DNA from: Eubacteriales bacterium
Lineage (GTDB): Bacteria; Bacillota; Clostridia; Oscillospirales; CAG-272
Reading direction: 5' to 3'
DNA length: 64,000 nt
Assembly: GCA_045612865.1 (NCBI GenBank)
Contig: JAZKZW010000082.1
Location: 5,135 to 69,134, forward strand
This document shows positions 44,349-44,918 of this stretch, piece after piece. A model generated the notes under the pieces. The model ran no database searches, was not told the DNA's origin, and saw only the letters and a list, made by a program, of their open reading frames with translations. Each line of letters opens with the position of its first letter. Position 1 is the first letter of the stretch. The position numbers were made by a program, and so were the translations under genes.

Positions 44349-44918
44349 TGGTGGAGGATGTGGGATTCGAACCCACGACCCATAGCTTTACCCAACAATG
44401 CTCTTATAAACCCTTACAGACCTCCTCATCAATAAAATCTTTAAGAAAATTAACTCCTTTGGCTTGTCCATTTTTCGGAGGAACAAGTCTTAAAGTTTTT
44501 AGTGTTGAACATTCATTAACAGGAATTAAATAATTTTTTCCTTGATAATGAGTTACAAAATAATCACAATCTTCTTTTGAATACAAATGACGCTGATTAG
44601 GTGTATTTTTTGTATAACCTGATTGCCAACAAGTTTTAATTGTCAAATAATCAACTTGTCCTTCGTCATTTGTATGAAGATTAGCGTGTTTACATTGTAG
44701 CTTATATAATCTTCCATTTATGTCAACAATGAAATCATATTTTTCACTATCTCCATAAGGAATTGAAACAGGATAACCAAGTTCATAAAAACGACAAATA
44801 CATTGTAGTTCAGTAAAATTGCCAAGATATTTTGTATTATTTTCCATATTTAATTGTTAAAGGTTTTAAGAGTTTATCAAGCAAAGCTATTGCTCATAGC
44901 CAGCTGAGCTAATCCCCC
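44349..44918 (-). tRNA. tRNA-Ala(UGC) interrupted in the anticodon loop by a ~492 nt insertion (exons ~44881-44918 and 44349-44388)
   Basis: 5' half GGGGGATTAGCTCAGCTGGCTATGAGCAATAGCTTTGC; 3' half AAGCTATGGGTCGTGGGTTCGAATCCCACATCCTCCACCA; stems pair across the insertion. Confidence 0.55.
44404..44847 (-). CDS. PD-(D/E)XK-like putative endonuclease encoded inside the tRNA-Ala intervening sequence
   Basis: 147 aa ORF filling the insertion; GDSEKYDFIVDINGRLYKLQCK. Confidence 0.4.
   Translation of the reverse strand: MENNTKYLGNFTELQCICRFYELGYPVSIPYGDSEKYDFIVDINGRLYKLQCKHANLHTNDEGQVDYLTIKTCWQSGYTKNTPNQRHLYSKEDCDYFVTHYQGKNYLIPVNECSTLKTLRLVPPKNGQAKGVNFLKDFIDEEVCKGL

Follow-up and report, generated by a model that had tools for sequence, protein, structure and literature searches.

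A putative ribozyme-free intron carrying a homing-endonuclease gene in the anticodon loop of phage tRNA genes

Structure of the split tRNA-Ala gene

The 64,000-nt stretch of contig JAZKZW010000082.1 (assembly GCA_045612865.1) analysed here, hereafter the window, is DNA of a large phage. It carries a tRNA-Ala(UGC) gene (44349-44918, minus strand, as are all window features given below unless indicated otherwise), which possesses G3:U70 and an encoded CCA and is interrupted by 492 nt. It is somewhat probable that this insert is a mobile, ribozyme-free tRNA intron of an undescribed kind, which would be removed by protein enzymes. A precursor that is cut and religated is the best explanation because a helix spans the two junctions, the insert matches the interrupted anticodon, the site of insertion is fixed, the exons are intact and the gene is the only tRNA-Ala of its array. 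Splicing of the tRNA-Ala precursor itself is what we infer from these sequence features.

The 5' exon (44881-44918) comprises the 5' strand of the acceptor stem, the D-arm, the anticodon stem ATAGC, and the loop nucleotides U32 to C36, the last of which is located at 44881. From 44918 to 44881, it reads GGGGGAT TA GCTC AGCTGGCTAT GAGC A ATAGC TTTGC as DNA and GGGGGAU UA GCUC AGCUGGCUAU GAGC A AUAGC UUUGC as RNA. The 3' exon (44349-44388) contains A37, A38, the anticodon stem GCUAU, the variable loop, the T-arm, the 3' strand of the acceptor stem, A73, and the encoded CCA (44349-44351). It reads, from 44388 to 44349, AA GCTAT GGGTC GTGGG TTCGAAT CCCAC ATCCTCC ACCA as DNA and AA GCUAU GGGUC GUGGG UUCGAAU CCCAC AUCCUCC ACCA as RNA. 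The intervening sequence (44389-44880) begins with UUGAUAAAC and terminates with GCAUUGUUGGGUA (...UUGGGUA). Since no base can be shifted across either junction, the break is placed between C36 and A37 (36|37). The predicted exon-exon junction of the spliced tRNA-Ala is ...AGCUUUGC|AAGCUAU..., i.e. ...GAGCAAUAGCUUUGC joined to AAGCUAUGGGUCG....

This read-out agrees with the original prediction, made from the same DNA, of a tRNA-Ala(UGC) gene split in the anticodon loop by a 492-nt insertion with an open reading frame (ORF) of 147 aa. Owing to the long D-loop, the mature tRNA would comprise 78 nt with the encoded CCA and not the 76 nt given there. Pairing is complete in the acceptor (7 pairs), T (5 pairs), and anticodon (5 pairs) stems, both G3:U70 and A73 were found, and ARAGORN called the halves joined in silico as tRNA-Ala(tgc). 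The split gene was skipped by the default ARAGORN and Rfam tRNA scans, while the intron mode of ARAGORN recovered the right span with a wrong intron position. Phage tRNA sets are under-counted because standard tRNA finders skip split genes. This is an annotation blind spot: the 'missing' tRNA-Ala of the window is present but split.

Unsplit phage tRNA-Ala genes share the identical 22-nt anticodon arm, and those at loci L127 and L135 also have the identical acceptor stem (GGGGGAT/ATCCTCC). The predicted spliced product is, therefore, a naturally occurring sequence. The split gene is the sole tRNA-Ala in a one-strand array of ~29 tRNA genes (42.3-54.4 kb), and all 20 amino acids are covered only if it is counted.

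A family of inserts in phage tRNA genes

Three protein searches returned 173, 263, and 92 homologues of the endonuclease encoded in the insert. The DNA contexts of homologues were fetched (161 loci), and 40 distinct inserts were parsed from them. These homologous inserts are 463-497 nt long, all occur in phage tRNA arrays, and all are located exactly at 36|37. Their recurrence at the same position in other phage tRNA genes excludes a chance arrangement in the window. The interrupted genes are tRNA-Ala(UGC), Val(UAC), Asn(GUU), Ile(GAU), and Ile(UAU), each confirmed by ARAGORN on the sequence spliced in silico; 32 of 33 such sequences were called as tRNAs.

The junction geometry is unchanged across the family, in which protein identity goes down to 40%. 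The ORF encodes 142-150 aa and is intact in 39 of the 40 inserts with in-frame TAG read through. In several of the ORFs, a TAG occupies in frame a position at which Gln or Glu is conserved, in agreement with recoding of this stop codon in those phages. The stop codon lies at a fixed distance from the 3' junction: 13 nt in most Ala and Val inserts, 15 nt for the window insert and L123, and 10 nt in the Asn and Ile(GAU) inserts. Exon stems are preserved across the copies, with pairing in 208/210 acceptor, 147/150 T-stem, and 149/150 anticodon-stem positions. The G3:U70 pair was kept in 26 of 27 distinct Ala copies, spanning 23 different acceptor sequences.

Two kinds of loci carry the endonuclease gene outside tRNA genes. 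At L024, the gene is free-standing, both helices described below are gone, and an intact tRNA-Ala gene is located beside it. At L160 (1360-1870) and L161, the gene retains the terminal helix and a 5-bp stem (TTCGC/GCGAA) but no tRNA body. It is located between an intact tRNA-Asn and an intact tRNA-Ala(UGC), and the loop of the latter retains the target CTTGCAA.

Versions of the insert lacking the ORF were found neither in the 161 loci nor in IMG/VR, which says little because IMG/VR holds only ~3 ORF-bearing copies. Distant homologues from Acidobacteria (30-35% identity) have no tRNA or intron nearby and were unusable as group I comparators. The short contigs L123 and L124 were considered as excised or circular insert RNA; this was rejected, the DNA contexts being ordinary.

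Some copies display peculiarities of their own. In L151, L152, and L153 (600-2000), interrupted Asn(GUU) and Ile(UAU) genes are adjacent, less than 500 bp apart, and each has its own PDDEXK_5 gene. The upstream ORF of these paired loci was called as 122 aa in L151 and L152 vs 140 aa in L153. In L150 (contig k119_38054), TGA breaks the insert ORF under the standard code, but the product is catalogued at its full length of 143 aa; TGA may be a sense codon in this phage.

A junction-spanning helix that matches the anticodon

The minimum free energy (MFE) fold prolongs the anticodon stem through both ends of the insert (z = -5.6 and -4.7). Starting from the anticodon stem, the order is as follows: the 32.38 mismatch, U33-A37, anticodon positions 34-36 paired with insert bases -1 to -3, and insert bases +1 to +7 paired with -4 to -10 (helix H1; insert bases are numbered positively from its 5' end and negatively from its 3' end). 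Beyond H1, a 1x2 internal loop with A+8 opposite C-12 and A-11 is followed by a second helix, H2, in which the bases from +9 onward pair with those from -13 onward. The 5' strand of H1, supported by MFE and covariation, occupies 44874-44884; it consists of exon nucleotides U33-C36 and insert bases +1 to +7 and contains the 5' junction (44881|44880). Its 3' strand (44388-44398) consists of insert bases -10 to -1 and exon A37 and contains the 3' junction (44389|44388). The unpaired C-12 and A-11 are located at 44399-44400, opposite A+8 at 44873. The 5' strand of H2 (44858-44872, insert +9 to +23) belongs to the 5' untranslated region of the endonuclease gene, and the 3' strand (44401-44416, insert -13 to -28) includes the last codons of the ORF and the stop codon.

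Covariation was assessed on a gapless 73-column alignment of 29 sequences, with partners slid by 1-3 columns as the control. The junction helix was paired in 91.6% of cells vs 34-46% in the slid controls. Both sides changed in 17 of 27 helix pairs, and none of 500 shuffles reached the observed covariation score. In H2, compensatory changes occurred in 8 of 10 aligned pairs. A+8 and A-11 were invariant in the 29 sequences, and C-12 was the consensus base in most of them.

The match of the insert 3' end to the interrupted anticodon is, on sequence comparison, the strongest point for the helix. In the window, the anticodon UGC pairs with GUA, which occupies insert positions -3 to -1. Within the family, the insert ends with GUA or GUG for anticodon UGC (Ala), GUA for UAC (Val), AGC for GUU (Asn), AUC for GAU (Ile), and AUA for UAU (Ile). 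Two of these matches, those of the Ala and Asn types, involve wobble pairs, so they do not represent a DNA duplication made at insertion. Many pairs of the helix are also G.U, which means that pairing is possible only in RNA of the tRNA-sense strand and not between DNA inverted repeats. DNA-level terminal inverted repeats and a target-site duplication were rejected for these two reasons.

Since the insert 3' end pairs with the anticodon, the two junctions flank a 3-bp helix and are located on its opposite strands. Because of the pairing between the two insert ends and between these and the anticodon loop, the predicted pre-tRNA is a normal cloverleaf with an anticodon arm of ~27 bp and the ORF in the terminal loop. 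The junction helix as a whole has ~27 bp with two small loops.

The Asn and Ile(GAU) inserts (L154, L156, L157, L158, and L153) have a conserved YCUGAC near the 5' end, which faces CUGAUGUAAA near the 3' end. This pair of motifs occupies the place of the 1x2 loop of the Ala subtype; tandem G.A pairs might arise between the two, similar to a box C/D motif or a K-turn.

The insert-encoded endonuclease

The homing-endonuclease gene (44404-44847; 444 nt, 147 aa) belongs to the I-Ssp6803I family (PDDEXK_5), and its TAA stop codon (44404-44406) is located inside H2. The original prediction of a PD-(D/E)XK-like protein is well founded: the product matches Pfam PF11645 with 78.3 bits (curated threshold 26.1) and E = 7e-22 over profile positions 2-135 of 138. 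Compared with I-Ssp6803I (structure 2OST), the E value is 3.5e-4 by sequence and 1e-7 by profile. By these comparisons, the protein shares the PD-(D/E)XK fold and catalytic residues with the solved structure. The catalytic residues E13, D38, Q51, and K53 are present in the window protein and are invariant across 47 homologues. The codon-position entropy in the ORF is 0.96 for the third position vs 0.63 for the first and 0.46 for the second. The third codon positions thus being most variable, the ORF is under protein-level selection.

Near the 3' end of the ORF, the sequence GAGGAGGU (44422-44433; codons D-E-E-V) is conserved at the nucleotide level (alignment A3, columns ~474-484), despite GAA being the usual Glu codon here. 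It represents a perfect Shine-Dalgarno-like sequence ~20 nt ahead of the stop codon and H2 and may be an RNA-level signal.

Search for a ribozyme

Inserts were submitted to three Rfam scans, two of them permissive. No match to group I or group II introns or to small ribozymes was obtained with a threshold of E<=10 for the window insert and E<=1 for 10 others, and these classes were, therefore, rejected. This includes the structure search for group I elements in the insert that had been proposed together with the original prediction. The expectation that the ORF would leave little room for a ribozyme core proved correct: the non-coding sequence amounts to 48 nt in the window insert and to 36-48 nt per insert in the family.

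Group I introns have a U at the 5' splice site, which forms the G.U pair in P1, a terminal G, and a conserved catalytic core (P3-P9) of at least about 200 nt. The core was not found in the inserts, and in the window the U and G at the junctions are also lacking: the 5' exon ends with C36 and the insert ends with A. In the family, the final base of the insert is A, G, or C depending on the anticodon. The resemblance to group I introns suggested by the original prediction is not supported beyond the endonuclease.

RNAalifold applied to 30 full inserts revealed the terminal helix only and no conserved structure inside the ORF. Third-codon-position (synonymous) variability is flat along the whole ORF, and this evenness argues that no conserved RNA is hidden in it. 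A ribozyme concealed in the ORF was rejected on these two grounds. A hammerhead was also considered, the 3' junction following GUA and the Asn-type inserts having CUGAUGU, but the core is incomplete and Rfam gave no match.

Mobility of the cassette

Insert identity was higher than exon identity in 322 of 435 pairs of copies. For example, L009 and L089 share 93.5% identity in the insert vs 65.7% in the exons, and L090 and L122 share 97.9% vs 86.1%. Intron-less alleles, namely, the unsplit phage tRNA-Ala genes, also exist. Judged from these sequence identities, the cassette moves between diverged tRNA genes and has reached five tRNA species.

Proposed mechanism and alternative explanations

After transcription, a dimeric endonuclease would cut both strands across the minor groove at both junctions. 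This would free the ORF-bearing hairpin, with the acceptor and anticodon stems keeping the two tRNA halves paired. An RNA ligase of the phage itself would then reseal the anticodon loop, with the adjacent kinase and phosphoesterase helping if needed. The preferred candidate for the cutting enzyme would be the PD-(D/E)XK endonuclease of the insert itself, with both RNA and DNA as substrates; a host double-strand RNase would be the alternative. On DNA, the insert's endonuclease would cut intron-less tRNA genes, thereby driving homing. It is attractive as the cutter because it travels with the cassette, is intact in essentially all copies, and the junctions are symmetric about position 35 of the palindromic anticodon arm, its presumed recognition site in DNA. 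A symmetric enzyme with a 3-nt 3' stagger would cut the DNA of this arm at the junctions, and a dimeric nuclease would be well suited to a 3-bp 3' stagger across the minor groove. That one endonuclease serves both substrates, i.e. the DNA of intron-less genes and its own pre-tRNA at both junctions, with the phage RNA ligase finishing the reaction, is a tentative proposal, which we regard as doubtful. If true, the bacterial world would gain its first case of tRNA splicing by a protein catalyst, and the enzyme would be the first homing endonuclease to splice its own intron as well.

Several points weigh against removal of the insert as an intron. The Val copy L150 breaks the anticodon-insert match with two mismatches, and the Ile(UAU) copy would give U37 after joining. 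The helix without a tRNA body in L160/L161 suggests that it might serve the endonuclease mRNA itself. Homing being frequent, intact exons alone are no proof of splicing; the insertions may just be recent. RNA repair cassettes are probably widespread among phages that have tRNA arrays, which makes the one in the window weak evidence. We know of no protein-dependent tRNA splicing in bacteria or their viruses and of no PD-(D/E)XK homing endonuclease that cuts RNA. That I-Ssp6803I leaves 3-nt 3' overhangs is our assumption, and the stagger of RNase III is 2 nt, not 3 nt.

The original prediction had offered a choice between a novel intron type and a tRNA gene disrupted by an endonuclease gene. The former is favoured over simple disruption because of the covarying helix, the anticodon-matching 3' end of the insert, the exons that are intact nearly everywhere, and the status of the gene as the sole tRNA-Ala. 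An unlikely explanation is a selfish endonuclease cassette that inactivates the tRNA genes into which it homes and undergoes no splicing at all, with exons intact only since the insertions are recent. The helix would in this case serve the endonuclease mRNA, by RNase III release from a polycistronic tRNA transcript, by stabilisation, or by translation control, with a Shine-Dalgarno-like AAGG and the stop codon buried in the helix. Such an insertion would agree with the high frequency of homing, the many other homing-endonuclease genes in the window, the retention of the helix without a tRNA body in L160/L161, and the fact that no splicing machinery has been identified. The intact tRNA-Ala genes beside the non-tRNA endonuclease copies of L024 and L160 also look as if the tRNA needed replacing. 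However, an mRNA hairpin needs no pairing with exons, yet the insert 3' end tracks five anticodons, and the G.U pairs in two of these matches rule out duplication at the DNA level. The invariable site at 36|37, the junction geometry kept down to 40% protein identity, the free-standing gene of L024 without helices, and the split state of the only tRNA-Ala in an otherwise complete array also speak against it.

Self-splicing appears improbable; it would take a strongly degenerated group I intron, or else a small ribozyme of unknown type, with catalytic parts in the helix and the coding sequence. Some points speak for it. The related I-Ssp6803I resides in the tRNA-fMet group I intron of Synechocystis PCC 6803, which has 655 nt, a 150-aa ORF, and a ribozyme core of ~200 nt (PMC1995217). 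All 339 tRNA introns in a 2026 survey of complete bacterial genomes are self-splicing and belong to group I (333) or group II (6) (PMC13011429). The inserts also have a conserved internal loop 8 nt from the 5' junction (A+8/C-12 A-11 in the Ala type, CUGA/UGAUGU in the Asn type). Against this stand the lack of any covariance-model match in the Rfam scans, the mere 36-48 nt of non-coding sequence, an ORF with neither conserved structure nor a dip in synonymous variation, and, in the window, an exon ending with C and an insert ending with A where group I needs U and a terminal G.

Excision without ligation, in which a double-strand RNase removes the hairpin as in 23S rRNA intervening sequences and the halves function paired or are discarded, is highly improbable. 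The long terminal helix does resemble the RNase III processing stems of those sequences and has a sufficient length for this. Its 3-bp stagger, however, mismatches RNase III, and the phage has a ligase and healing enzymes. A nick at 36/37 also adjoins the anticodon, and, judging from what is known of anticodon-nuclease damage, a tRNA nicked in this way is unlikely to decode.

Removal as a ribozyme-free intron, if true, would be a third route of intron removal in the bacterial world, following the enzymatic logic of archaea and eukaryotes with different parts. It suggests a natural job for phage RNA ligases and healing enzymes beyond the repair of defence-nuclease damage. The junction rule (36|37, last three bases complementary to the anticodon, 3-bp stagger) makes the idea directly testable.

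Comparison with known systems

Like the tRNA-fMet intron of Synechocystis, the window insert is a mobile element of the anticodon loop with a homologous endonuclease of ~150 aa, which has the same PD-(D/E)XK fold and catalytic residues. The Synechocystis intron is located at 33/34, after U (PMC13011429). By contrast, the insert of 492 nt has only 48 nt of non-coding sequence and no core, is located at 36/37 after C, ends with A, and occurs in phages rather than cyanobacteria. In the 2026 survey, a PD-(D/E)XK endonuclease gene was confined to cyanobacterial tRNA-fMet (PMC13011429).

The insert shares several traits with archaeal bulge-helix-bulge introns, including those carrying LAGLIDADG genes, and with eukaryotic pre-tRNA introns (PMC4090602). 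These include the absence of a ribozyme, an ORF in the loop of a helix formed by the intron ends, pairing of the anticodon with intron bases, cut sites facing each other across a short helix, and the need for a ligase. Unlike bulge-helix-bulge introns, it lacks 3-nt bulges, a continuous stretch of 3 bp lies between the junctions instead of 4 bp flanked by bulges, its position is 36/37 and not 37/38, and the endonuclease family is different. A bulge-helix-bulge motif was rejected, since no alternative pairing tried by hand yielded two 3-nt bulges. Thus, the bulges of this class were not found, the pairing between anticodon and intron was, and an RNA ligase pathway is available, the use of which here we infer. 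To our knowledge, no EndA/Sen-type enzyme occurs in bacteria or phages, and none was detected among the window ORFs scanned.

Bacterial 23S rRNA intervening sequences, which are removed by RNase III, also interrupt the gene of a structural RNA and form a long helix with their ends. Unlike the window insert, they are never re-ligated, carry no gene, are not found in tRNA, and are cut with the 2-nt stagger of RNase III.

A 2014 review knew of no phage tRNA gene with an intron (PMC3984707). Unclassified, 'enigmatic' introns have been reported from Lak megaphages, where they interrupt tRNAs for Phe, Gly, Thr, and Tyr (Devoto et al.; 10.1101/356790, PMC6784885). Like the insert, these are unclassified and reside in tRNA genes of phages with a recoded stop codon. 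In contrast, one of them is predicted to contain a tRNA-like sequence, and no endonuclease gene, junction rule, or structure has been described for them. In phage T4, the kinase/phosphatase Pnkp and the RNA ligase Rnl1 reseal the anticodon loop, and the window has the same three activities in adjacent genes. The T4 break, however, results from a host defence nuclease and not from intron excision, and the domain families differ, those in the window being a metallophosphoesterase and an OB-domain ligase. We found no description of the present family of phage tRNA inserts in the literature searched.

Genomic setting

The window encodes DnaB, primase, gyrase A and B, NAD-dependent DNA ligase, and a sigma-70 factor. 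No megablast match to 20 kb of it was obtained among reference phages. Recoding of TAG is probable in this phage. The window encodes a CUA-anticodon suppressor tRNA (22444-22519; labelled Pyl by ARAGORN), and stop codon use there is 35 TAA, 18 TGA, and 2 TAG. Several ORFs, mostly homing-endonuclease-like, are full length only with TAG read through, among them those at 11070-12227, 24949-25761, 54449-55258, and 57764-58594.

Three adjoining genes encode potential RNA repair functions. The RNA ligase (26919-28106) has the PHA02142 OB domain and PF09414 (Pfam E = 3e-24 and 3e-19) and matches PHROG 968 'RNA ligase' (E = 2.5e-59); it is a candidate for joining the tRNA halves, its link to the insert being conjectural. 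Next to it is the gene for a P-loop kinase (AAA_33; 26341-26823; Pfam E = 2.4e-19), a candidate 5'-end healing enzyme. This adjoins the gene for a calcineurin-like metallophosphoesterase (25820-26353; Pfam E = 3e-8), a candidate 3'-end healing enzyme. Together, they would provide the activities for end healing and sealing of a broken anticodon loop with any end chemistry, which speaks for feasibility and is not proof. A search of IMG/VR for the RNA ligase returned only contigs other than the insert-bearing ones and is uninformative on co-occurrence.

The window is very densely populated with homing-endonuclease-like genes, located at 49842-50480, 30124-30732, 18491-19423, 11070-12227, 54449-55258, 57764-58594, 24949-25761, and 35176-35934. 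These eight comprise two HNH, one LAGLIDADG, and three GIY-YIG genes as well as two paralogues with a Cys-rich N-terminus and an E-x-DG-x-QH motif. One HNH gene is located inside the tRNA array, 25 nt from tRNA-Leu, and the LAGLIDADG gene is located between gyrA and gyrB.

The tRNA array contains a full-length ROOL RNA (42702-43321; 161.6 bits). A stronger copy (295 bits) was found in the related array L005 (4433-5058), and weak Y-RNA-like and 'drum' RNA matches occur in other arrays (L026, L091, and L019). The only Asn-like tRNA of the array (52677-52751) is a tRNA-like gene with an 8-nt anticodon loop, AUAGUUAA, for which ARAGORN reports the anticodon 'agtt'. This gene may be damaged, or it may encode an unusual decoder, for instance a frameshift-prone one. 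The tRNA-Lys(UUU) gene (45290-45375; 86 nt) possesses a variable arm that is long and paired, which is unusual for a lysine tRNA.

Outside the array, the gene at 30767-33235 encodes an 822-aa protein with major-vault-protein shoulder, vault repeat, and SPFH/Band-7 domains. A second protein of the Band-7/flotillin type is encoded at 39756-41288. A 797-aa ORF (30920-33313, plus strand) runs antisense to the gene for the 822-aa vault/Band-7 protein.

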